A DNA stretch of 64,000 bases from a bacterium. Lineage in GTDB: Bacteria; SAR324; JACQKK01. The notes beneath the pieces were generated by a model. It had not been told where the DNA came from. It saw only the letters and a program-made list of their open reading frames with translations, and searched no databases. The position numbers and the translations under genes are program-made. The stretch lies in the NCBI GenBank assembly GCA_965240465.1, contig OZ251219.1:1312001-1376000 (forward strand). Direction: 5' to 3'. Shown in pieces: positions 16,707-28,197 of this stretch; positions within the stretch are counted from its first letter, which is position 1, and every line of letters starts with the position of its first letter.

Positions 16707-16799
16707 GTATTCAATTATTTGAGTACCCAACTATTACCATGTGCTCACTTTGCACAGCAAGCAGTAGCATTCCCAGCCCTCTTTCATTCCCTACTTCCA

Positions 16800-17672
16800 A
16801 TGCTGAAAGTCAAAAAAACTCCCCAAAAACTCCAAAAACATAAGGAAACTAACACCAGCCAAAACCAGAAAAAATACGGTACATCCAAAAAACACAGTCC
16901 ATCCAAAAAACTTAAGCACCAAAGAATCCCCCTGTGGCGTGTAGAACAACTTGCACACTTGGGTATGGAATGGCAAACCATCATCGCTACCATTGACCTA
17001 AGGCGTAAAATCACTGACTTTGAGGTGAAACTCATTCAGCAACGCATCGCTAAGGCACATGCCAGAACTTATCTGAAAATGCTGAAAATCCGCCTCCAAC
17101 AAGCCTCTAAGGGTAGGCTCTCCCCCTTAAATGAACTGATAAAACAACTTAGTAAATCATCACCTGCTAACGGTGGCATCGCTCTTAAGGTGATTAGAAA
17201 TATTATTCAAAATCCGCAACCTCCCCAACTCCATCCCCCGCAGATCCATCCATCCACCTCAGCTCCCGCTCCCGCTCCCGCCCCCGCTCCCCCAACTCCA
17301 TCCCCCGCTCCCGCTCCCGCCCCCCCAACTCCATCCCCCGCTCCCGCTCCCGCCCCCGCTCCCCCAACTCCATCCCCCGCTCCCGCATCTCCATCCACTC
17401 CATCCCCCGCCCCCGCAGCTCCATCCCCCGCCCCCCCAACTCCATCCCCCGCTCCCGCCACCCCTGATGCCACCAATATATCCTCTAATCAACAGCTGGT
17501 ACCATTGGCAGAACGTCATTTCTTCAAACATCTCCCCCCGCAAGAAGCTTATCAAATATGGCTCGCTAGCCATAACGCTAGCAAACAAATAATAAAGATA
17601 AACCCATTAGCTGAACCCCCCTCCCGAGTCATCAGTACTTATTCAATCATGGCTAAAGCTCCTATCTTTTAA
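16800..17672 (+). CDS. Hypothetical protein: Lys-rich N-terminus, helical core, long Pro/Ala/Ser/Thr linker
   Basis: Long ORF, ATG at 16800 (alternative TTG 16719); (PTPSPAPAP)n tract at 17240-17460. Confidence 0.65.
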   Translation: MLKVKKTPQKLQKHKETNTSQNQKKYGTSKKHSPSKKLKHQRIPLWRVEQLAHLGMEWQTIIATIDLRRKITDFEVKLIQQRIAKAHARTYLKMLKIRLQQASKGRLSPLNELIKQLSKSSPANGGIALKVIRNIIQNPQPPQLHPPQIHPSTSAPAPAPAPAPPTPSPAPAPAPPTPSPAPAPAPAPPTPSPAPASPSTPSPAPAAPSPAPPTPSPAPATPDATNISSNQQLVPLAERHFFKHLPPQEAYQIWLASHNASKQIIKINPLAEPPSRVISTYSIMAKAPIF

Positions 17673-17746: not shown

Positions 17747-18574
17747 GTGGTTTATAATCCATTACAAGTAGAATTGCCTCAGTTTGAAGGTCCGCTGGAC
17801 TTGTTGCTCCATTTGGTACGCAAGCGGGAATTAGACATAGATACTTTGTACCTCAGCGAGCTAACCGAGCCATATCTGGAGTGGATAAAGGGGATGAAGG
17901 TTAGCGAGTTGGATTTGAATGGGGAGTTTTTGGTAATTGCGGCTACCTTGATTTGGATTAAGTCGCGTTCATTGTTGCCTAGGGTTATGACCAGCGATGA
18001 TGAGGGTGATGAAGTGGATGTCGCTGAGATGGAAGCTTTATTGATGAATCGTTTGCAGGTGTACAAGAAGATTCAGAATGTAGCTCAGCAGTTAAAGTTT
18101 CACCAGCGTTTAGATCGCGAGGTATTTGCTCGTATTCCAGCTATGGATGATAAAGAAGAGGAGCAAGGGCAGGAGCAGGGGCAGGAGCAGGGGCAGGAGA
18201 TAGAGGTATCGCTGTATAGTTTATTGGAGGCTTTCAGTAGGGTTCAGGAGAGATTAAGGAATGATGAGCCATGGCAGATTGAGCCAGACGACTTTAACCT
18301 TGAGGATGTTTTGGATGGTATTTGGAAGACCTTGAAGCAGGAGAAGAGGGTATTATTCGGACGATTATTTCGGACTAGTACCAGTCGTTTTGAGATAGTG
18401 ACCATTTTTATTTTATTATTGGAGTTGGCGAGGCTGGGAGCCTTGCATTTTGTGCAGGAAGATCCTGGTAAGGAGTTGCTGTGCCAGTTGCTAGTGCCTG
18501 AGAATCAGCCCCATGAAGGATTTTTCAACCAGCTACTAACCTCCCCGAGCTTAAGTAGTGCTATAAGTAGTTAA
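17747..18574 (+). CDS. scpA: Segregation and condensation protein A
   Basis: FEGPLDLLLHLV, EFLVIAATLIWIKSRSLLP, FILLLEL. Confidence 0.93.
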   Translation: MVYNPLQVELPQFEGPLDLLLHLVRKRELDIDTLYLSELTEPYLEWIKGMKVSELDLNGEFLVIAATLIWIKSRSLLPRVMTSDDEGDEVDVAEMEALLMNRLQVYKKIQNVAQQLKFHQRLDREVFARIPAMDDKEEEQGQEQGQEQGQEIEVSLYSLLEAFSRVQERLRNDEPWQIEPDDFNLEDVLDGIWKTLKQEKRVLFGRLFRTSTSRFEIVTIFILLLELARLGALHFVQEDPGKELLCQLLVPENQPHEGFFNQLLTSPSLSSAISS

Positions 18575-18633
18575 GTGGGATACTATGATGGGCGACATTT
18601 ACATGCAGAGGTATCTCGCTTTGTGCTTGCACC

Positions 18634-18760
18634 TGGGCATTGGCATTTGGGCATTGGCATTTGGGCATTGGCATTTGGGCATGGAATTTAGGCATTGGCA
18701 TTTAGGCAGTATTTTTAGGCACTGGCAGGCAGTATTTTTAGGCACTGGCATTTAGGCATG
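18634..18760. repeat. Degenerate 14-bp tandem repeat
   Basis: tgggcattggcatt and ggcagtatttttaggcact units. Confidence 0.85.
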
Positions 18761-18798: not shown

Positions 18799-19893
18799 TT
18801 GATTAGAGAACGCTTACAGTCATTTTTAAGGATGCTTACCGATCCTCGGGTTATCACTTTGGTGATAGCATCTGTTTTGGCTACGCTGTCGGTGATTTTA
18901 TTAGGTACGGCGGTTTTGCTCCTAATTATTGCTCTTATGCTAGTTTTTGCCTTAGAGAGTTATATTTCACGTTTGAGGAGTTTAGGCATGTCAGTGGGAG
19001 TGGCTCGCAATCTTGTTTTTTGGATATTTTGTTTTATCTATCTTTTGGGAATTATCGGTCCTGTTCAGTTAGCGATTGAGCAATTATTGCAGATTGTGTC
19101 CATTTTACCTCAATTGACCTTAGACATTTCTAGCAATCTTGAGAATTGGACTCCTCCTTTATTTTTACAGAAGTATCAACCTTACATTTCCAATATTTTG
19201 GTATCTAGCCCTCAATTTATAGATACTCTCACTCAAAAAATTGGTGAGAATGCCCAGAATGCTGTTCAGACGGCTTTGGGGGCATTTTTAAGTATTACGG
19301 GTGCGGCGGTTTATTTGATATTACTTCCATTGCTGGTATTTTTCATGCTTAAGGATAAAGCGATGCTTTATGGTGCCATTCGGTTGATACCCGGCAATTT
19401 TGAGTTAGTAAAAAGCATTTGGAATGATATGGAAGAAGGCATGGCTAGGTATGTGAGCAGCAAGCTTTGGGAGGTTATGATAGTTGGTTTGGTTACTTGG
19501 GGTATTTTTTATTTACTTAAGTTTGAGTATGCAGCTTTGATGGGAATATTCACTGGTCTTTCGGTGTTAGTTCCTTATGTAGGAGCATTTGTGGTTACGA
19601 TTCCGGTTTTTTTATTAGGTCTTAGCCAGTGGGGATTTTCCGTGGATCTTAGTTATTTGATGATTGCATATTTTGCCATTCAATTTTTGGATGGCAATGT
19701 TCTTTCAACGCTTATGTTTTCTGATGCTGTTAAGATACCGCCTACCGCCATTTTGATCAGCGTGATTGTCTTTGGACGTTTGTGGGGTTTTTGGGGAGCT
19801 GTGTTTGCTATTCCACTGGTATCATTACTGAGGTCGCTGGCACATGCTTGGATTAAATTTAAGGACTCCAGTGATCAGCCGAATGCGTCCTGA
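18799..19893 (+). CDS. AI-2E family (PerM-like) transporter
   Basis: Multi-TM; FFMLKD, SVLVPYVGA, QFLDGNVL, GRLWGFWGAVFAIPL. Confidence 0.9.
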   Translation: MIRERLQSFLRMLTDPRVITLVIASVLATLSVILLGTAVLLLIIALMLVFALESYISRLRSLGMSVGVARNLVFWIFCFIYLLGIIGPVQLAIEQLLQIVSILPQLTLDISSNLENWTPPLFLQKYQPYISNILVSSPQFIDTLTQKIGENAQNAVQTALGAFLSITGAAVYLILLPLLVFFMLKDKAMLYGAIRLIPGNFELVKSIWNDMEEGMARYVSSKLWEVMIVGLVTWGIFYLLKFEYAALMGIFTGLSVLVPYVGAFVVTIPVFLLGLSQWGFSVDLSYLMIAYFAIQFLDGNVLSTLMFSDAVKIPPTAILISVIVFGRLWGFWGAVFAIPLVSLLRSLAHAWIKFKDSSDQPNAS

Positions 19894-20095
19894 TGGTATT
19901 GCGTCCCTTTTGTTTTGCATTTTGATGGTATTGCGTTGATGGTATTGCGTCCCTTTTGTTTTGCATTTTGATGGTATTGCGTTGATGGTATTGCGTTGAT
20001 GGTATTGCGTTGATGGTATTGCGTTGATGGTATTGCGTTGATGGTATTGCGTTGATGGTATTGCGTCCCTTTTGTTTTGCATTTTGATGGTATTG
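19891..20095. repeat. Compound tandem repeat: 14-bp unit with an interspersed T-rich linker
   Basis: (ttgatggtattgcg)n with three cccttttgttttgcatt insertions. Confidence 0.95.
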
Positions 20096-20129
20096 AGTTT
20101 TGATAGTTTGTGGGTTTATTTACGTGCAA

Positions 20130-20203
<74 letters not shown>

Positions 20204-20238
20204 ATGCAGAGTGAGAATACGATACTAGCATGACTTAG

Positions 20239-21048
20239 TTAGCGTGAAGCCAGCTTGAAGTAACGCTTTTCAGTTGGAGCATAGAGTTTGGGGTATTTTT
20301 GTTTAGCGACCTGCAGCATGGCGATAAATTTAGGAACATATTCTGCGGTTTCTTGTCGGAGACGGAGTCTGAAAAAGCTGGTGGTGTGTTGTTGTTGGAT
20401 TTTTTTAGACAGGTAGTTAGGTCCTCCATTGTAGGCTGCTAGGGCTAATTCCCAACGATAGTTAAATTCCAGCCCTAGCTGTTCCAAATAACGAGCTGCG
20501 GCCACGGTGGATTTCTTCCAGTTGAGGCGATCATCACGGTTGTGGCTGATGTGTAAGCCCATATGTCTGGCGGTCTGTGCGGTGAACTGCCACATACCGA
20601 GGGCACTTCCAGAGTTGGCATCCAGCTTAAAGGTGGATTCGAGCATGGGCAAATAGGCTAGTTCTTCTGGCAACCCCCGACGGCGGAACTCTCGCACGAT
20701 GGTAGGTAAATAGGGCTGAGCACGAACCAAAGCCTTTTTCACGGTGTTAGTACGATTGTAATAACGATGAAATTTCTGCACCAAAGCATGATTGGATTGC
20801 CACAGTAATGGATTCTTATCCTTAATCCTGCTAGTCAGCAAAGATGCTCTTATCTCGGTGGGATATACAAAAGGATTCGTACAAGAACTCAGCAACAATG
20901 CTATTAGTGAAATGCTCAGATAGTGCAACAAACTCAGATGTGAACTCCTAGCTGCACTAGCCAATTCATAGCAACTCAGGTGATAACTAGCAGGGCGTAA
21001 ATTTGACTTCATATAATTCCCAAAACAACAATTTCCGTGCAACAACAA
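20239..21048 (-). CDS. Lytic transglycosylase (MltD-like SLT domain), probable lipoprotein
   Basis: LPMLES, GMWQF, ALAAYNGG, ETAEYVPKF; LLLSSC lipobox; real start probably downstream of 21048. Confidence 0.88.
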   Translation of the reverse strand: MLLHGNCCFGNYMKSNLRPASYHLSCYELASAARSSHLSLLHYLSISLIALLLSSCTNPFVYPTEIRASLLTSRIKDKNPLLWQSNHALVQKFHRYYNRTNTVKKALVRAQPYLPTIVREFRRRGLPEELAYLPMLESTFKLDANSGSALGMWQFTAQTARHMGLHISHNRDDRLNWKKSTVAAARYLEQLGLEFNYRWELALAAYNGGPNYLSKKIQQQHTTSFFRLRLRQETAEYVPKFIAMLQVAKQKYPKLYAPTEKRYFKLASR

Positions 21049-21143
21049 TCTCCGTGCAACAACAATCTCCGCGCGGTAGCATCACCTACCTCGCCATATG
21101 TATTGCAATTCGGCTGCCAGAATAAGCACTAGACCTCACTTTA

Positions 21144-22058
21144 ATGCCTACTCCTGTTCAACCCGCGATAAATGCCATGATAAATGCCATCACCATCGCC
21201 AAACTGATGGAATACACACAGAAAATGGATGCAATCGCAATCCCGCGCCTCATCCTCAAGGATAAACAGCTGGAGTACCCTCTACTGATGGGCGTGATAA
21301 ACCTATCGCCCGATTCCGCTTACCGAAAAAGTATCTGCCATGATGCTCCTACTGCCATTGCCCGCGGACTCACCCTAAGCCAACAAGGAGCGTGCCTCAT
21401 AGACATCGGGGTTGAATCCACCTTAGAACATGCCAAACGAATTGACCCTCAGGAGCAAATAAAGCTCCTGCTGCCAGTAATCAAGGGATTGGTAACAGAG
21501 GGAATCTTGGTGTCCGCAGAAAGCTACCACCCTAAAGTGCTCGAAGCTGCAGCTCAAGCTGGGGCTGCTATTTTTAATCTCACTGGCACTGCCGAAGAAA
21601 ATGACGTATATCAACTGGCAGCTAAATATCAAACTGCCGTCATCCATAGCTACATCCAAGGCGAACATGTTCATAAAGTGCAAGACTTCCAATTCCAGCC
21701 CCAAATGACCCTCAAAATGCAGGCTTGGTTTCAAAAACGACTTGAAATAGCTCAAAAACAAGGGGTACAACACCACATCCTAGACCCAGGACTGGGCTTC
21801 TACTATCCCAATCTCAAGGACAGCACCCAACGAGTACATCATCAACTAAACACCTTCCTTACCAGCTGGCAACTACACTCACTAGGTTGGCCTATAATGA
21901 ACATCCTTCCTCACGCCCCAGAAGCTTTTACCGACTCCCTCCAGTCCTATGCCGAACCCTTCTTTGCCGTCTTTGCTCTCCTCGGGGGAACACATATCAT
22001 CCGCACCCACGAAGTGAAAACCGTTGCTGCCGTCCAGCAAACAATGGAAATGTATTAA
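21144..22058 (+). CDS. folP: Dihydropteroate synthase-like protein
   Basis: MGVINLSPDS, IDIGVEST, LDPGLGF, IIRTHEV; start uncertain. Confidence 0.85.
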   Translation: MPTPVQPAINAMINAITIAKLMEYTQKMDAIAIPRLILKDKQLEYPLLMGVINLSPDSAYRKSICHDAPTAIARGLTLSQQGACLIDIGVESTLEHAKRIDPQEQIKLLLPVIKGLVTEGILVSAESYHPKVLEAAAQAGAAIFNLTGTAEENDVYQLAAKYQTAVIHSYIQGEHVHKVQDFQFQPQMTLKMQAWFQKRLEIAQKQGVQHHILDPGLGFYYPNLKDSTQRVHHQLNTFLTSWQLHSLGWPIMNILPHAPEAFTDSLQSYAEPFFAVFALLGGTHIIRTHEVKTVAAVQQTMEMY

Positions 22059-22150
22059 AATGGGAAATGTATTAAAATAATTGAAATAAGTAAGATTTTA
22101 TGGTATGTACTAGCTAACTCATTAAGTAGTATATAGGAACGGAGAGTGCT

Positions 22151-22591
22151 ATGGATACGGTTTTTGTCATTGCAGATGCAATTCTTAAGATAGCCAAAGA
22201 GCAAAATAAAAAGGTTACCCCACTTCAATTATTGAAGCTGGTATATATCTCGGAAGGTTGGAGCTTGGCTTTGCGAAATAAAACGCTGTTTTCTAATCGC
22301 ATAGAGGCTTGGCAGTACGGGCCTGTTGTTCCAGACCTTTACCACAGAACGAAGAATTTTGGTGGAAACCCAATACCATACAAAGAAATGGATTATGAAG
22401 AATCTTCTCTTAGCGGGGAAGATTTTGAGTTTCAAAAGGAGGTTTATAATGCTTATCGTGATTACTCAGGTATTGAATTATCAAGCATTACACACCAGAC
22501 TGATTCGCCTTGGTACCAAGTCTACAAGCATGGTGAGTATAAATTAGAAATACCTCATCTAGAGCTCAAGAAGGCTAGAGGAGTAAAGTAG
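22151..22591 (+). CDS. Panacea-domain (DUF4065/SocA/GepA-like) antitoxin
   Basis: TPLQLLKLVYI, IEAWQYGPVVPDLY, ELSSITHQTDSPW are characteristic Panacea motifs. Confidence 0.9.
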   Translation: MDTVFVIADAILKIAKEQNKKVTPLQLLKLVYISEGWSLALRNKTLFSNRIEAWQYGPVVPDLYHRTKNFGGNPIPYKEMDYEESSLSGEDFEFQKEVYNAYRDYSGIELSSITHQTDSPWYQVYKHGEYKLEIPHLELKKARGVK

Positions 22592-22596
22592 AGATA

Positions 22597-22920
22597 TTGC
22601 ATGGCATCCCAAATCCTCCAGAGAGACCGCAATTTGAATGGACAAGCGATAAGCTTGCAAATTTAGAAGGTGAATTACACGGGGAAAAAATAAAACAAGA
22701 TATTAGGATCATTTCGTTCCTTGGGTGGTTAAGGATGGTTGTTGCAGGTTTGCTGGTGGTAGTTTTTCTCGTATGGTTATTTCATTTATTAACCCCTGGA
22801 TATTGGCATTGGTTAAGCACAGAAAGTATAAGAACGTTGGAAGTAATTTTTATTAGTGTTATTTTTGGAGGATTTTTTCTCAACCCAGCTAGTAGATACT
22901 CTGATAACAGAGACGCATAA
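22597..22920 (+). CDS. Small two-TM membrane protein, putative Panacea-paired toxin
   Basis: Starts 5 bp after the antitoxin stop; two hydrophobic helices flank WLFHLLTPGYWHWLS. Confidence 0.6.
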   Translation: MHGIPNPPERPQFEWTSDKLANLEGELHGEKIKQDIRIISFLGWLRMVVAGLLVVVFLVWLFHLLTPGYWHWLSTESIRTLEVIFISVIFGGFFLNPASRYSDNRDA

Positions 22921-23020
22921 AAATTTAATAAGGGCAATTTTGTAGCAGTGTCCGTAGGGTAAAACCATTTGCTAAATTTTTTTATCGCTTAGTGATTATG
23001 AAGACAAAATAGCAGAGAAA

Positions 23021-23431
23021 ATGGAAGGTGGATTTAGAAATAGTGTAGCTTTTGGTGAGCGAATTGAGTACTTGCTGGTAGGAGAAATGATTGGGGAAGG
23101 ATTGGATGTTTATCGTCCTGTGACTGATAACATGGGCATTGATGCGGTTATCAGAAGGAAGGATGGAACATTTATTGAGGTGCAAATCAAGGCTCGCTCA
23201 AAGGACGCAAAGCAAGGTACTTTATTTACCTTAAAAGCTTTCCAAGCGAGAAGAAGTTATTTCTTTATCTTTTACGCTGAGGGAATTAATACCAAGTGGA
23301 TATTTTCCTCTAAGGAACTTGACGCAGAGGCTGTGACAAATAAAACAGGAAAGCACGAAGGCAAGAGGAGCATTACACTTGGTAAAAGATTTGACAAATA
23401 CATAGCTACTAATTTTGATAGGCTAAAATAG
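23021..23431 (+). CDS. Small PD-(D/E)xK nuclease-family protein, copy 1
   Basis: GERIE...DVYRPVTDNMGIDAVI...EVQIK. Confidence 0.78.
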   Translation: MEGGFRNSVAFGERIEYLLVGEMIGEGLDVYRPVTDNMGIDAVIRRKDGTFIEVQIKARSKDAKQGTLFTLKAFQARRSYFFIFYAEGINTKWIFSSKELDAEAVTNKTGKHEGKRSITLGKRFDKYIATNFDRLK

Positions 23432-23438
23432 TATCAGG

Positions 23439-23465
23439 GGGGCTAATGTTGCCCCTTATTTTTTT
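23439..23465 (+). terminator. Terminator-like hairpin between nuclease copies (repeated at 23905-23932)
   Basis: GGGGC-taatgtt-GCCCC followed by TTATTTTTTT. Confidence 0.5.
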
Positions 23466-23486
23466 GCATAATAAAAGGAGACACAA

Positions 23487-23912
23487 ATGGCAAATCGTGA
23501 AAATAATCACGCTTTTAATGAGCGAATTAAGTGCTTTATAAAGAAGGAAATGCTTAAAGAAGGGATGGATGTTTATCTTGCCAAGGTTGAAAATGGAGAA
23601 GGTATAGTTGTCAAAAAGGAGAACAAAATACATATTGAGGTGAAAGTCCATGCTAGTTCAAAGGAGGCACAGAAAGGTTGTTCATTTGGATTTGGCTTAC
23701 AACCTTTCCCAAAGAAAAGAAATTATTTCTTTATCCTTTATGATGAAAGAACTAATACCAAGTGGATATTCTCCTCTAAGGAACTTGACGCAGAGGCTGA
23801 GACAAATAAAACAGGAAAAAACAAAGGGGAGAGAAGCATTATACTTGGTGAAAGATTTGAAAAATACATAGCTACTAATTTTGATAGGCTAAAAGAGTAT
23901 CAGGGGGGCTAA
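23487..23912 (+). CDS. PD-(D/E)xK nuclease paralog, copy 2, catalytic motif degenerate
   Basis: NERIK, ENGEGIVV and EVKVH replace GERIE, GID and EVQIK; AAGGAG SD. Confidence 0.75.
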   Translation: MANRENNHAFNERIKCFIKKEMLKEGMDVYLAKVENGEGIVVKKENKIHIEVKVHASSKEAQKGCSFGFGLQPFPKKRNYFFILYDERTNTKWIFSSKELDAEAETNKTGKNKGERSIILGERFEKYIATNFDRLKEYQGG

Positions 23913-23953
23913 TGTTGCCCCTTATTTTTTTTGCATAATAAAAGGAGACACAA

Positions 23954-24382
23954 ATGGGAGTTAGTTTTAGAAGTAAAAAATCTTTTGGTGAGCGAATTGA
24001 GTACTGGATAGCGGGGGAAATGCTGAAAGAGGGGATGGATGTTTATCTTCCTACGGTTGATGACATGGGAATTGATATGGTTGTCAGAAGGAAGGATAAA
24101 ACATTTATTGAGGTGCAAGTTAAGGCTAGATCAGAGGACGCAAAGCAAGGTCTTTTATTTGCTGCTCTAAAACCTTTTCCAGTGAGAGAAAATTATTTCT
24201 TTATCTTTTATGCTGAAGCAGTAAATACCAAGTGGATATTTTCCTCTAAGGAACTTGACAAAGAAGCTGGGACGAATAAAACAGGAGAAAATAAAGGCAA
24301 GAGGAACATTGCTCTTGGTAAGAAATTTGACAAATACATAGCTACTAATTTTGATAGGCTAGAAGAGTACAAGGGGGGCTAA
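23954..24382 (+). CDS. PD-(D/E)xK nuclease paralog, copy 3
   Basis: GERIE, DDMGIDMVV, EVQVK; SD. Confidence 0.78.
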   Translation: MGVSFRSKKSFGERIEYWIAGEMLKEGMDVYLPTVDDMGIDMVVRRKDKTFIEVQVKARSEDAKQGLLFAALKPFPVRENYFFIFYAEAVNTKWIFSSKELDKEAGTNKTGENKGKRNIALGKKFDKYIATNFDRLEEYKGG

Positions 24383-24434
24383 GAAAACTGGATGAGGCAT
24401 ATTATTTTTTTTTGCATAATGAAAGGAGACACAA

Positions 24435-24860
24435 ATGGGAGTTAGTTTTAGAAGTAAAAAATCTTTTGGTGAGCGAATTGAGCACTGGATAATGGGGGAA
24501 ATGCTTAAAGAAGGGATGGATGTTTATCTTTCCACGGTTGATGACAGGGGAGTTGATATGGTTGTCAGAAATGAGAATGGAATATTTATTGAGGTGCAGA
24601 TCAAGGCTAGATCAGAGGACGCAAAGAAAGATATGTTATTTAACACTAAACCTTTCATAGCAAGAAAAAATTATTTCTTTATCTTTTATGCTGAGGGAAG
24701 AAATATCAAGTGGATATTCTCCTCTAAGGAACTTGACGCAGAGGCTGAGACAAATAAAACAGGAAAAAACAAAGGGGAGAGAAGCATTATACTTGTTGAA
24801 AGATTTGACAAATACATAGCTACTAATTTTGATAGGCTAAAAGAGTACAAGGGGGGCTAA
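24435..24860 (+). CDS. PD-(D/E)xK nuclease paralog, copy 4
   Basis: GERIE, DDRGVDMVV, EVQIK; SD. Confidence 0.78.
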   Translation: MGVSFRSKKSFGERIEHWIMGEMLKEGMDVYLSTVDDRGVDMVVRNENGIFIEVQIKARSEDAKKDMLFNTKPFIARKNYFFIFYAEGRNIKWIFSSKELDAEAETNKTGKNKGERSIILVERFDKYIATNFDRLKEYKGG

Positions 24861-24913
24861 GAAAACTGGATGAGGCATATTATTTTTTTATTGCATAATG
24901 AAAGGAGACACAA

Positions 24914-25339
24914 ATGGGAGTTAGTTTTAGAAGTAAAAAATCTTTCGGTGAGCGAATTGAGCACTGGATAATGGGGGAAATGCTTAAAGAAGGGATGGAT
25001 GTTTATCTTTCCACGGTTGATGACAGGGGAGTTGATATGGTTGTCAGAAATGAGAATGGAATATTTATTGAGGTGCAGATCAAGGCTAGATCAGAGGACG
25101 CAAAGAAAGATATGTTATTTAACACTAAACCTTTCATAGCAAGAAAAAATTATTTCTTTATCTTTTATGCTGAGGGAAGAAATATCAAGTGGATATTCAC
25201 CTCCAAGGAACTTGACGCAGAGGCTGAGACAAATAAAGCAGGAAAAAACAAAGGGGGGAGGTGGATTCGTCTTAGTGATAAATTTGACAAGTACACGGTT
25301 ACTAATTTTGATAGGCTAAAAGAGTACAAGGGGGGCTAA
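24914..25339 (+). CDS. PD-(D/E)xK nuclease paralog, copy 5
   Basis: Nearly identical to copy 4 except the C-terminal segment. Confidence 0.78.
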   Translation: MGVSFRSKKSFGERIEHWIMGEMLKEGMDVYLSTVDDRGVDMVVRNENGIFIEVQIKARSEDAKKDMLFNTKPFIARKNYFFIFYAEGRNIKWIFTSKELDAEAETNKAGKNKGGRWIRLSDKFDKYTVTNFDRLKEYKGG

Positions 25340-25440
25340 AAATTGGATGAGGCATGAACTCATGCCGAGCGAAGTAGTAGGTAAGAGTACACTACGGGGG
25401 GGGGCTTTATATTTTTTGGCATAACAAACAGGAGACACAG

Positions 25441-25890
25441 ATGGAAGGTGATTTTAGAAGTAAAAAATCTTTTGGTGAGCGAATTGAGAGTTTCTGGCAT
25501 AATTCCCCTTTACCAGCCCTTTTTGGGTATCCCTTAGTGGCTGCTTTTATGGGGTATGGATTATTCATATTTGTTTTTGGTATTTGGGGATTATTCAATA
25601 TGTTCGAAAATTTTGGATTATGGCTAATCTTTGAGTACTTTTTTAAATTTTTAGCTGTACTTTTACTATTTTTTGGGTTCTGGGTTCATTTGGTAATTGG
25701 GGTAGTCTACTGGCTGGTAACAGAATGGAACTGGGAGATTTGGCAAGCAATTTTGTTTGTTTCTCCTTTTTCTTTTATTTGGCTTTTTTTGCTTATTTGG
25801 CTTATCGGAACAGGCTTGGCTGCTTCTTTTTCCTTGCTTGGAAGTTTATTCGGACATAAAAAAAAGGGAGACAATGAAATCAACTGGTGA
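25441..25890 (+). CDS. Membrane protein with nuclease-derived N-terminal peptide, copy A
   Basis: MEGDFRSKKSFGERIE followed by 3-4 hydrophobic helices; AGGAG SD. Confidence 0.75.
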   Translation: MEGDFRSKKSFGERIESFWHNSPLPALFGYPLVAAFMGYGLFIFVFGIWGLFNMFENFGLWLIFEYFFKFLAVLLLFFGFWVHLVIGVVYWLVTEWNWEIWQAILFVSPFSFIWLFLLIWLIGTGLAASFSLLGSLFGHKKKGDNEINW

Positions 25891-25980
25891 GGTATAAACT
25901 CATGCCGAGAGAAGTGGTAGGTAAGAGTACGCTACGGGGGGGGCTTTATATTTTTTGGCATAATAAAGCAGGATACACAA

Positions 25981-26415
25981 ATGGAAGGTGGATTTAGAAA
26001 TAGTGTAGCTTTTGGTGAGCGAATTGAGAGTTTCATGCTACTTCTTTTTAGGTGTCCCTTAAAGGTTGCTGTTTGGGGGTATGGATTATTCATAGTTGTT
26101 TTTGGTATTTGGGGATTATTCAATATGTTCGAAGATTTTGGATTATGGCCAATCTTTGAGTACTTTTTTACAGGTATAGTTTCACTTTTAGTATTTTTTG
26201 GGTTCTGGTATCTTTTGATGATTGGGGTAGTCTACTGGTTCGTAACAGAATGGAACTGGGAGGTTTGGCAAGCATTTTTGTTTATTTTTCCTTTCATTCC
26301 TGTTGCTATTATTTTGCCTATTTGGCTTATCGGAACAGGCTTGGCTGCTTTTTCTTCCTTGCTTGGAAGTTTATTCGGACATAAAAAGAGGGGAGACAAT
26401 GGAATCAACTGCTGA
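25981..26415 (+). CDS. Membrane protein with nuclease-derived N-terminal peptide, copy B
   Basis: First 48 nt identical to 23021-23068; remainder paralogous to 25441-25890. Confidence 0.75.
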   Translation: MEGGFRNSVAFGERIESFMLLLFRCPLKVAVWGYGLFIVVFGIWGLFNMFEDFGLWPIFEYFFTGIVSLLVFFGFWYLLMIGVVYWFVTEWNWEVWQAFLFIFPFIPVAIILPIWLIGTGLAAFSSLLGSLFGHKKRGDNGINC

Positions 26416-26426
26416 GGCATAAACTC

Positions 26427-27365
26427 ATGCCGAAACTCATGCCCAGAGAAAAAGCCAGTATTGCCTCCCCCGAAATATCCATTCCAGTGGTTTGGCAGCC
26501 AGGACACATGCAAGCCGCCAAAAAGAAGCTGTCCCAAGTGCTGAAAAGTACGGACATCGTCTTGGAACTGCGAGATGCCCGCCTCCCAGCCCTGACCTCG
26601 CCCGCTTGGTTTGAGGAAAGACTGCGACAAAAATCCCGCTTGCTCGCCTGCAACAAATCAGCTTTAGCCGATCCAGAAGTGAACCAGCAATGGTTGGAAT
26701 TCTGGAAGCAACAACAACAACCAGCCATCTTGCTTGATGCAGATTCTAAGCAAGGCTTAAAACAACTTTTTCAGGCTATTCAGTTCTTAGGAAAACCCTC
26801 GCGACAGCGTTTCCACCGACGCAATATGCAGCCTCCCGCCCTGCGAATTTTAATCATCGGGCTGCCCAATGTTGGCAAATCCACCCTGATCAATCGCTTG
26901 GGAAATAAGAAACGAACCGCAGTAGCACCGCAACCAGGGGTTACCAGAGGAATTACCTGGATCAATCTGCCTCCCAACATGCTGGTGATGGATACCCCAG
27001 GCATTTTGCCACCACGAGTAGAAAATCAACAACAATTGCTCTGGCTGGCTTGGAGCGGATGCCTCCCAGATCATACGCTCAACCTGCCTCACCTTACCGC
27101 ACTACTACTTACCTACTTGCTTGATAAACCTCAGCCCCAACTGCTCCAATGGCTAAAACCGATAATACCACCTACCCAGCCAAATTTTAGCCAAACCCAG
27201 CAATTACTCCGCGAACTATGTCAACATCGGGGCTGGCTACTACCTAAAGCCCAGCCTCATCTTCATCAGGCAGCCCAAAAATTCTTCTCCCACTTCCGAA
27301 CAGGAAAACTAGGGCGATATTCCTTCCAAAGACCTAAACATAAACCGAAAAATGAAAATATCTAG
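26427..27365 (+). CDS. rbgA: Ribosome biogenesis GTPase RbgA/YlqF
   Basis: WQPGHM, ELRDARLP, GLPNVGKSTLIN, PGVTR, DTPGIL, FRTGKLG. Confidence 0.93.
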   Translation: MPKLMPREKASIASPEISIPVVWQPGHMQAAKKKLSQVLKSTDIVLELRDARLPALTSPAWFEERLRQKSRLLACNKSALADPEVNQQWLEFWKQQQQPAILLDADSKQGLKQLFQAIQFLGKPSRQRFHRRNMQPPALRILIIGLPNVGKSTLINRLGNKKRTAVAPQPGVTRGITWINLPPNMLVMDTPGILPPRVENQQQLLWLAWSGCLPDHTLNLPHLTALLLTYLLDKPQPQLLQWLKPIIPPTQPNFSQTQQLLRELCQHRGWLLPKAQPHLHQAAQKFFSHFRTGKLGRYSFQRPKHKPKNENI

Positions 27366-28197
27366 CAGACGCTTACTGTTTCTAGGACTGGCAACGCTTT
27401 TCGCCTTGTTGCTATTCCTAGCCTTGGGGCGTGAGGTATATCGCGAAATCGGTGATGCTCGGCTCTCGGTGAACGCTTTGCTGCGAGTCAGCGAACCCCT
27501 GCTACACAGTGGAAAGGTGAACTTGCTACGCACCGACCGCCTAGCCATCTTCTTGGTGGATGGGCAGAAGCCTGTCGCTATGAAGATAATCTCTCCCTTG
27601 CTGCTACCTCAGGCAGTGCAAATAGGACAAAAACATGCCACCGAGCAGGCACTTGTAGAGCAATCACTTGTGGAGCAATCACTTGTGGTGCGAGAGCAAA
27701 AGGAGTACTTGCTGGTGGCTATCACTGATAAAGACGGAGATATATTTCAGCTCAGTCCTGGAGAAGCCTATGGAAGCACCACCGCGACCATCGGAGATAA
27801 GAAGGTACCTCTGCTACTGACGGAAGAATATCGGGGTGGACTTTTTAATCAAGGGTATCAATCCTTTACCATTTCTGGCGTTGCAGATACTAAACTGCCC
27901 TACCAGCCCTCGCCTGATGGTAGACTCATCGTGATGCTATTTGATACAAAACTTCAGCAACCAATCGCTTTCAGCATTACTGATAATGATCGCCTGCCCC
28001 AGCCTTTTTCAATTTCTTTGCCTCTGCAGCTGCATGATAATCACCAGCCCGCTTATCAGCTACGCATCCTGACCGATAAAAACCAGCAACCTTTTCAGTC
28101 GGCTCCAGGGGAAATCATTGGGCGTTCGGCTGAAGCTGTCCCGCTGGGGACTACCCAGCTGCAATTCTGGCTGGACATGCCTTATCGCAGAAAGTGA
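27352..28197 (+). CDS. Hypothetical membrane-anchored/exported protein
   Basis: N-terminal TM; two internally similar beta-rich halves (TDK...PGE motifs); overlaps the rbgA stop. Confidence 0.65.
   Translation: MKISSRRLLFLGLATLFALLLFLALGREVYREIGDARLSVNALLRVSEPLLHSGKVNLLRTDRLAIFLVDGQKPVAMKIISPLLLPQAVQIGQKHATEQALVEQSLVEQSLVVREQKEYLLVAITDKDGDIFQLSPGEAYGSTTATIGDKKVPLLLTEEYRGGLFNQGYQSFTISGVADTKLPYQPSPDGRLIVMLFDTKLQQPIAFSITDNDRLPQPFSISLPLQLHDNHQPAYQLRILTDKNQQPFQSAPGEIIGRSAEAVPLGTTQLQFWLDMPYRRK

Follow-up and report, generated by a model that had tools for sequence, protein, structure and literature searches.

Two membrane-protein genes of a SAR324 bacterium, tmA and tmB, open with the same 16 codons as the small nuclease genes nuc1 to nuc5, which lie in tandem upstream of them. 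They stand in a stretch of 64,000 nucleotides (nt) that we call the window (GenBank assembly GCA_965240465.1, contig OZ251219.1, positions 1,312,001 to 1,376,000 of the forward strand), in which all positions below are counted unless another contig is named. An earlier note, made from the sequence alone, had taken the leader and the 16 codons for a portable expression cassette that captures unrelated payloads, or the encoded peptide for a common tag, perhaps recognised by a Panacea protein. Our analysis points to a simpler history, which we consider probable: the body of the last unit of the array was replaced once, duplication and short exchanges at the 5' end followed, and the shared start is a translated relic of the nuclease gene. 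The features on which this reading rests are the following.

23021..23431, +: nuc1 (136 aa; PF11645 at 28.8 bits, where the cut-off is 26.1), with a leader of its own
23487..23912, +: nuc2, a divergent paralog placed by family alignment; no Pfam nuclease match
23954..24382, +: nuc3 (142 aa; PF11645, 27.9 bits)
24435..24860, +: nuc4 (141 aa; PF11645, 21.2 bits, under the cut-off)
24914..25339, +: nuc5 (141 aa; PF11645, 21 bits, under the cut-off), the last intact nuclease unit
25348..25368, +: first copy of the 21-nt element TGAGGCATGAACTCATGCCGA (repeat family D8), marking a duplication junction
25383..25400, +: relic resembling a nuclease 3' end (AAGAGTACA..GGGGGG) in the spacer 5' of tmA, placed by MAFFT (score reached by 4 of 500 shuffles)
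25408..25440, +: tmA leader, with T-run, GGCATAA and a Shine-Dalgarno-like AGGAGA
25441-25890, +: tmA gene (149 aa)
25441..25488, +: tmA codons 1-16 (MEGDFRSKKSFGERIE), a nuclease-derived mosaic by comparison of the starts; the peptide also occurs in proteins P0001 and P0028
25489..25881, +: foreign body of tmA, a hydrophobic membrane module (KD19 runs, predicted helices, homology to protein P0026)
25882..25908, +: tmA 3' end and stop in sequence of the nuc3/nuc4 3' flank (AACTGG-TGAGG), plus the second copy of the 21-nt element
25923..25941, +: relic resembling a nuclease 3' end in the spacer 5' of tmB (weak; 26 of 500 shuffles)
25947..25980, +: tmB leader
25981-26415, +: tmB gene (144 aa)
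25981..26028, +: tmB codons 1-16 (MEGGFRNSVAFGERIE), 48 of 48 nt as in nuc1
26029..26406, +: foreign body of tmB, paralogous to that of tmA (repeat D5)
26407..26433, +: tmB 3' end (like the nuclease flank) and the third copy of the 21-nt element, continuing into the start of ylqF

The shared start and the body behind it

At the DNA level the likeness is as the earlier note described it. The first 48 nt of tmB (25981-26028) show 0 mismatches in 48 to those of nuc1 (23021-23068). Those of tmA (25441-25488) are a hybrid, nt 1-10 agreeing with nuc1 and tmB and nt 12-48 with nuc3 and nuc4, which are themselves identical over the N-terminal 48 nt; tmA differs from nuc3 at 4 positions, which all fall in nt 5-11, and from nuc1 at 8, which fall in nt 11-28. 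In both membrane genes the likeness to the nucleases stops after GAGCGAATTGAG, where the following codon is AGT as against TAC/CAC. The leader of T-run, GCATAA and AGGAGA, which had also been claimed as shared, is indeed common to nuc2-5, tmA and tmB, and is missing from nuc1, whose 33 upstream nt differ at 16-24 positions from those of every other copy. The identity between nuc1 and tmB is therefore limited to the 48 coding bases.

The 20-mer CTTTTGGTGAGCGAATTGAG, allowing up to 3 mismatches, has seven matches in the genome of 1,599,138 bases, and all of them are the seven gene starts; since a reversed control has none, the shared start is beyond chance. Other genes starting with this leader, for which the earlier note proposed to look, were not found: a 120-nt query of leader and start recovers this locus alone in the genome (E < 0.5). 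The chimeric 149-aa protein is also encoded on two independently assembled contigs (P0001 on one of 8,681 nt, P0028 on one of 58,033 nt) and is thus not an assembly artefact. Residues F5, R6, F11, G12, R14, I15 and E16 are kept in all seven genes of the array.

The peptide has its home in the nuclease family. The cut-off of PF11645 (PDDEXK_5), whose Pfam alignment begins at residue 8-12, is passed by nuc1 and nuc3 and missed by nuc4 and nuc5; nuc2 gives no match. Four copies (nuc1, nuc3, nuc4 and nuc5) have the motif D41, E53, Q55, K57 (nuc1 numbering; Asp...Glu-x-Lys on beta-2/beta-3), whose Asp and Lys are lost in nuc2 (GEGIV / EVKVH), probably an inactive paralog retained in the array. The N-terminus of nuc2 is also the most divergent (MANRENNHAFNERIK). 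An AlphaFold2 (AF2) model of nuc1 (pLDDT 87.1, pTM 0.82) has the restriction-endonuclease-like alpha-beta-beta-beta-alpha-beta fold, and its best Foldseek match is I-Ssp6803I (2ost, E 5.3e-6, TM 0.60), further matches being nuclease domains of SPARDA and archaeal Hjc (2eo0, E 1.4e-3). A profile of the nuclease family had no match among PDB sequences at E <= 1, and PADLOC returned only marginal matches for the nucleases (best 1.3e-4, PDC-S01). We conclude that nuc1-5 belong to an I-Ssp6803I-like group of PD-(D/E)XK proteins and are predicted nucleases. They resemble I-Ssp6803I and PF11645 in size (~140-150 aa), in the D...E-x-K motif and in fold; unlike I-Ssp6803I, they are free-standing genes with no intron context.

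Homologs of these nucleases occur in at least 158 species, and we examined 80 loci in species other than this one. The N-terminus xFRxxxSFG(K/E)RIE is a family trait: R6, F11, G12, R14 and E16 are nearly invariant among 24 sequences (the five copies and 19 database homologs), and the nuclease has the motif at 75 of the 80 loci. Because the peptide is conserved family-wide in nucleases, the 16 codons are the nuclease's native start, and the direction of transfer is, judging by this conservation, from nuclease to membrane gene. Helix alpha-1 spans residues 6-25 in the nuc1 model, which places the junction after residue 16 in mid-helix and makes it no predicted domain or module border.

At these loci HsdS is encoded directly upstream in 14 of 77 cases (others include DpnII, GmrSD and BrxL) and a protein of HsdR type directly downstream in 8 of 75. 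Seven of the 80 loci (L039, L041, L048, L064, L066, L086, L092) are Type I restriction-modification operons with the nuclease gene placed between hsdS and hsdR; elsewhere it stands between pheS and pheT (L045) or gatA and gatB (L043). In this placement the family behaves like a selfish or accessory defence gene that stands alone; the insertions at pheS/pheT and gatA/gatB are at most suggestive of homing endonucleases. We know of no study of this small nuclease lodged at hsdS/hsdR. Within +/-5 kb, none of the 80 loci has a second nuclease copy or a chimera, so the five-copy tandem array, as opposed to the single homologs elsewhere, and its chimeras are peculiar to this lineage. Neither the nuclease nor the membrane protein was found in 60 relatives searched, including a genome of the same genus.

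The body of the membrane proteins is of another kind. In tmA, KD19 hydrophobic runs of transmembrane (TM) grade cover residues 26-55, 58-94 and 100-137, and the AF2 model (pLDDT 70) has helices at 24-57, 61-95 and 100-138, residues 1-30 being modelled at pLDDT 48-55. Neither tmA nor tmB has a Pfam match; the nuclease core is absent, and sharing is limited to residues 1-16. PADLOC gave no match for tmA and a single marginal one for tmB (E 0.048, PDC-S59). A word-indexed search of 5.8 billion proteins returned the strain variant and tmB alone, and a HMMER search of 1.84 billion representatives returned tmB and one more protein, P0026 (E 1.3e-16, 44% identity). P0026 has 269 aa, and the contig that encodes it, of 1,165 nt, offers no context. 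Its residues 156-266 align with tmA 26-138, and in place of the peptide its residues 4-113, ahead of the module, form a DUF805 domain (PF05656, known from inner-membrane proteins); in tmA and tmB no match to DUF805 was found at E <= 1. The earlier note had asked whether homologs of the TM portion carry the peptide, and P0026, the sole distant relative found, does not. The motifs common to P0026 are retained in tmA and tmB alike. The TM body is, on this homology, a real and nearly orphan domain that is foreign to the nuclease.

The fusion with DUF805 in P0026 also suggests that the module recurs as a C-terminal membrane add-on. Longer proteins (472-2000 aa) searched with the TM alignment yielded nothing, which is weak evidence. 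A feature search of the Atlas with the TM body gave a best value of 0.86, to an unnamed cluster and under the level from which a match counts as more than a lead. One metagenome match (L101; 42 residues, on a high-GC contig) looked by eye like a chance hydrophobic likeness and was not used.

Probable fusion, duplication and patch exchange

The relation between the two chimeras is captured by direct repeats. Repeat D6 (25348-25494 against 25888-26034, 80%) crosses the junction, and repeat D5 continues through the bodies, tmA and tmB being 86% identical over 300 nt; their proteins are 70% identical, with a 15-nt in-frame indel right after the junction. The six bases immediately 3' of the junction are common to both. 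Since D6 spans the junction, the unit was already fused when it was duplicated into tmA and tmB, and the junction was inherited and not re-created. Synonymous divergence (dS) between the two genes is 0.075, comparable to that between nuc4 and nuc5 (0.071). The sequence GGCATAAT right after the tmA junction was noticed by eye, and we do not rely on it.

Traces of the nuclease unit are found on the other side of the body as well. The last codons and stop of tmA and tmB lie in AACTGG(A)TGAGGCATA, which is the 3' flank of nuc3 and nuc4 (4-5 of 500 shuffles reach the score), and the 21-nt element that overlaps the ylqF start (26413-26433) recurs after nuc5 and after tmA (score 37, reached by 0 of 500 shuffles). 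Both spacers also hold relics of a nuclease 3' end, with scores reached by 4 of 500 shuffles before tmA and 26 of 500 before tmB. The TM body is thereby bracketed on both sides by nuclease-unit sequence. A reading of the 3' end of the TM genes (CATAAAAAAAAGGGAGACAATG) as a second copy of the leader was rejected, as its alignment score is equalled or exceeded in 29 and 35 of 300 shuffles.

The other strains add a time scale. On both the 58,033-nt and the 8,681-nt contig the TM protein has the tmA-type peptide, and the tmB cluster consists of one member; the larger contig also has an ortholog of nuc1 (P0030) with the nuc1-type peptide. For these strains the structure of the array comes from protein clusters alone. 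The presence of the tmA-type peptide in both indicates that the tmA-type start is old and that the fusion predates the strain split.

We propose the following course of events. On a single occasion, an unrelated membrane module would have taken the place of the nuclease body in the terminal unit of the array, from codon 17 to a point shortly beyond the stop, leaving in place the leader, the start codon, the 16 codons and the 3' flank of that unit. The chimeric unit would have been present before the known strains split. In the present genome a tandem duplication would then have produced tmB from tmA, with breakpoints in the 3' end of the preceding nuclease and in the first codons of ylqF; tmB would thus have arisen in this lineage, and would later have received the nuc1 version of nt 11-28. 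Exchange of short stretches of the 48 nt (nt 11-28) between the chimeras and different nuclease copies appears to have left tmA and nuc3-5 sharing nt 12-48. An exchange tract must end at the junction because homology ends there. Less certainly, the nuclease-derived part may give the membrane proteins a ribosome-binding site, a start codon and a short, positively charged cytoplasmic N-tail, which would be half of helix alpha-1 with no part in nuclease folding and no dedicated role as a tag.

Contigs assembled from the source sample suggest some variation at this end of the array. In both runs a back-joint leads from 26465 through CC to 25946 (depth 14.7 and 26.8), which suggests an extra tandem tmB unit, or a shifted duplication junction, in part of the population. 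A loose end in which an apparent nuclease 3' flank passes directly into ylqF at 26437 is a hint only. Contig variants with other letters at 25389-25440 are probably due to cross-mapping between paralogs at 85% likeness, and we do not interpret them.

The island and its PanA gene

The array and its chimeras are part of a low-GC island of ~4.4 kb between a folP-like gene and ylqF. The GC content of 22000-26500 is 34-39%, against 47-51% in both flanks, and the stretch behaves as one island foreign by composition. All its genes are on the + strand: a pair of PanA and a small putative TM toxin, the five tandem I-Ssp6803I-like nuclease genes and the paralogous tmA and tmB. The features not yet listed are these.

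22151..22591, +: PanA gene of antitoxin type (SocA_Panacea; Pfam PF13274 at 76.5 bits, where the cut-off is 25.7; E 3.9e-21), at the left end of the island
22597..22920, +: open reading frame (ORF) of 107 aa with hydrophobic segments, 5 nt past the PanA stop; a probable PanT-type membrane toxin
23437..23467, +: hairpin and T-run resembling an intrinsic terminator, 3' of nuc1; the T-run is the same as that of the nuc2 leader
23903-23933: second terminator-like site, ahead of nuc3
from 26427, +: gene for a ylqF-type GTPase

The 107-aa ORF has a charged N-terminus and KD19 hydrophobic runs at residues 36-70 and 77-99. It has no match in Pfam or PADLOC and no similarity to tmA (BLASTP E 6.7), and PanA has no PADLOC match. 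A Panacea-domain gene with an adjoining small ORF is the layout of a PanAT operon, which encodes a type II toxin-antitoxin pair. Among the PanTs there are many small TM peptides whose N-terminus is charged, according to the passages of Kurata et al. (2022; PMC8832971) drawn on here, which also describe PanA as acting in general by direct binding, with ClpXP and Lon dispensable, and SocA, a Panacea protein, as a proteolytic adaptor in Caulobacter. The adjoining ORF with its charged N-terminus and C-terminal TM segments agrees with this make-up of membrane PanTs, as far as those passages describe it (PMC8832971), and is hence the expected partner of PanA.

Altogether the genome has five PanA genes, namely the one in the window (22151-22591) and those at 448394-448678(-), 419218-419517(+), 23901-24224(+) and 1580282-1580563(+) of contig G000:C1. 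A small downstream ORF with a TM-grade segment is present at three of the four other loci, and the fourth has a 53-aa ORF with an 11-residue hydrophobic tail. With a TM-type ORF at four of five PanA genes, the PanAT load is high for a 1.6-Mb genome. In the source-sample contigs of both runs, a joint skips 281 nt (22556-22838) from the end of PanA into the 107-aa ORF, at a depth of ~9-13 against 60-90; this may be a minority variant without most of the putative toxin, and its flanking side of ~30 nt makes it uncertain.

At the right border, the annotated start of ylqF (26427-26450) lies inside a 12-nt direct duplication, ATGCCGAAACTC followed by ATGCCCAGAGAA. The second ATG, at 26439, may be the real start, and the alignment with the same-genus ortholog begins at residue 17. 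The ylqF neighbourhood of that same-genus genome (G001) lacks the island; synteny is confined to ylqF itself (69% identity); the genes 5' of it code for an HNH protein and a ROK kinase, and folP is missing. An Rfam search over 19500-27500 found one tRNA gene and nothing else. This gene (20130-20203, - strand, 69.8 bits) stands 2 kb ahead of the island, without adjoining its boundary; an ORF resembling lytic transglycosylases and the folP-like gene lie in between. Further upstream, the ORF at 16719-17672 has a long low-complexity repeat of Pro, Ala, Thr and Ser (PAPAPAPPTPS...), and short ORFs at 18561-18755 have repeated tracts, MPMPKCQCPNANAQ on the reverse strand and WHLG/FRHWHLG on the forward strand.

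Alternative explanations and meaning

Several observations weigh against a single fusion followed by duplication and exchange, or against its product being a translated relic. Between tmA and tmB, nonsynonymous divergence (dN) is 0.178 and dS 0.075, a ratio of 2.4 that does not differ significantly from 1 (Fisher p 0.07); no purifying selection is seen, and the proteins may be decaying or diversifying. A scan for sigma-70-like promoters detected none at the leaders and 5 sites in the whole region, against 12.2 expected. Codon 19 of tmB is an in-frame ATG that has GAGAG 4 nt ahead of it and may be where translation really begins. The patch shared by nuc1 and tmB is flanked by just 10 and 20 identical bases, which is short for RecA-type exchange. 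Several of the relic alignments, finally, score modestly above shuffles, one of them being reached in 26 of 500.

The internal ATG of tmB could mean that the reading frames have been extended too far, with real starts at ATG19 in tmB and at GTG32 or ATG37 in tmA and the 48 nt as an untranslated in-frame relic. Homology to P0026 that begins at tmA residue 26 and the low model confidence of residues 1-30 agree with this, but tmA has TGG at the codon equivalent to ATG19, the next starts in its frame fall within the first hydrophobic segment, and a far better Shine-Dalgarno-like sequence (AGGAGA/AGGATA) stands 8 nt ahead of ATG1 in both genes. Moreover, the indel in the most variable patch measures 15 nt, not 14 or 16, which leaves the frame from ATG1 intact, and this frame is open in all four known versions. 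We therefore regard such an artefact as unlikely; tmA and tmB are probably translated from the nuclease ATG behind AGGAGA. Slightly less likely again is that both genes are decaying by-products, non-functional recombination debris at the unstable end of the array. The paralog dN/dS of ~2.4 (nuclease pairs have 0.5-2.0, and nuc2 against the other copies 0.8-2.0), the lost catalytic residues of nuc2, the near-orphan state of the family and the hints of structural variants in the source sample would all fit decay. However, random substitutions in the body create a stop in 5.7% of cases, and only 6% of simulations are still open after 54 substitutions, whereas both ORFs and two strain variants are intact; the motifs shared with P0026 at 44% identity are kept in both copies, and two copies are retained despite a small genome. 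We read tmA and tmB as real genes under relaxed or diversifying constraint.

The remaining alternatives give the shared sequence a function. In many defence systems a nuclease effector can stand in for a TM effector and vice versa, and leader, 16 codons and 3' flank might serve as homology arms for the exchange of effector bodies: nuclease-unit sequence lies on both sides of the TM body, 5' patches have been exchanged at least twice, and the nuclease family is found in defence contexts next to HsdS and HsdR. Still, a single alternative body is known, chimeras and second copies are absent from the 80 other loci, every unit has its own start, which makes a swap needless for expression, and no immunity-like partner genes are seen; we consider effector swapping very unlikely. 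I-Ssp6803I works as a tetramer, and a bolder version would have the arms swap DNA-cutting against membrane effectors while the half-helix docks both to a nuclease subunit or to PanA, which we hold to be a shade more improbable. If true, the homology-arm reading would make the locus a miniature, N-terminal counterpart of polymorphic-toxin module exchange in a defence or toxin island. The least probable of all is a functional tag, a recognition element of nucleases and TM proteins that is bound by Panacea or a protease adaptor. It would account for the seven residues kept in all seven genes and for repeated exchange that keeps the peptide identical to the nuclease copies; nuc1 has a PanA gene 430 nt ahead of it, and SocA provides the precedent of an adaptor, as far as the passages of PMC8832971 go. 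But the peptide is the native start of the nuclease fold, conserved where the neighbours are HsdS, HsdR or housekeeping genes (no SocA_Panacea among 77 upstream and 75 downstream neighbours), it ends in mid-helix, and it is absent from P0026. PanA has a TM ORF of its own next to it, as do three of its four paralogous loci, with no 20-mer nearby, and its neutralisation by direct cognate binding, independent of ClpXP and Lon, is the general mechanism in the same passages (PMC8832971). A complex prediction for PanA with tmA residues 1-30, made without controls, gave a score of 0.01 and a mark of 0.34, which weighs neither for nor against binding.

The common tag finds no support here, and its recognition by Panacea no positive evidence. 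The expression cassette fares better in part: nuclease leader, start and 16 codons do front a foreign body and most likely supply its translation start. Portability and a plural of payloads are not supported, given one payload type, one inherited junction, a 20-mer found nowhere else in the genome and no chimera at the 80 other loci. The scenario that the earlier note had set against its own proposal, one accidental fusion followed by duplication and gene conversion, is the one that matches the locus.

Among known systems, PanAT operons account for the left end of the island, whereas the chimeras lie 2.9-3.4 kb downstream, past five nuclease genes and two terminator-like sites. Chimeras that arise in tandem arrays through unequal recombination and gene conversion are similar in having a short conserved stretch, kept identical by exchange, in front of an unrelated body. 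The closest organised analogue is the orphan modules of contact-dependent inhibition (CDI) and Rhs systems, which likewise lie downstream of a main array. In contrast to these, the conserved part here is N-terminal, has 16 codons and its own start, and there is one payload type; the locus also lacks a demarcation motif common to different species, an immunity gene and any tie to a secretion system, and no small gene follows.

As a product of recombination the shared start is ordinary; the array that holds it is unusual. It shows, in a clean and datable case, how selfish or defence-type genes in tandem give rise to a chimeric gene, in which a foreign module would have taken over a nuclease translation start and the first half-helix, then been duplicated and kept in step by short exchange. 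The case would become weightier only if the peptide or the arms were functional. It also advises caution, in that shared N-termini in clustered genes should not be taken for tags. Finally, the locus flags two little-known families, a widespread mini-nuclease that is often lodged at hsdS/hsdR and a near-orphan membrane module.

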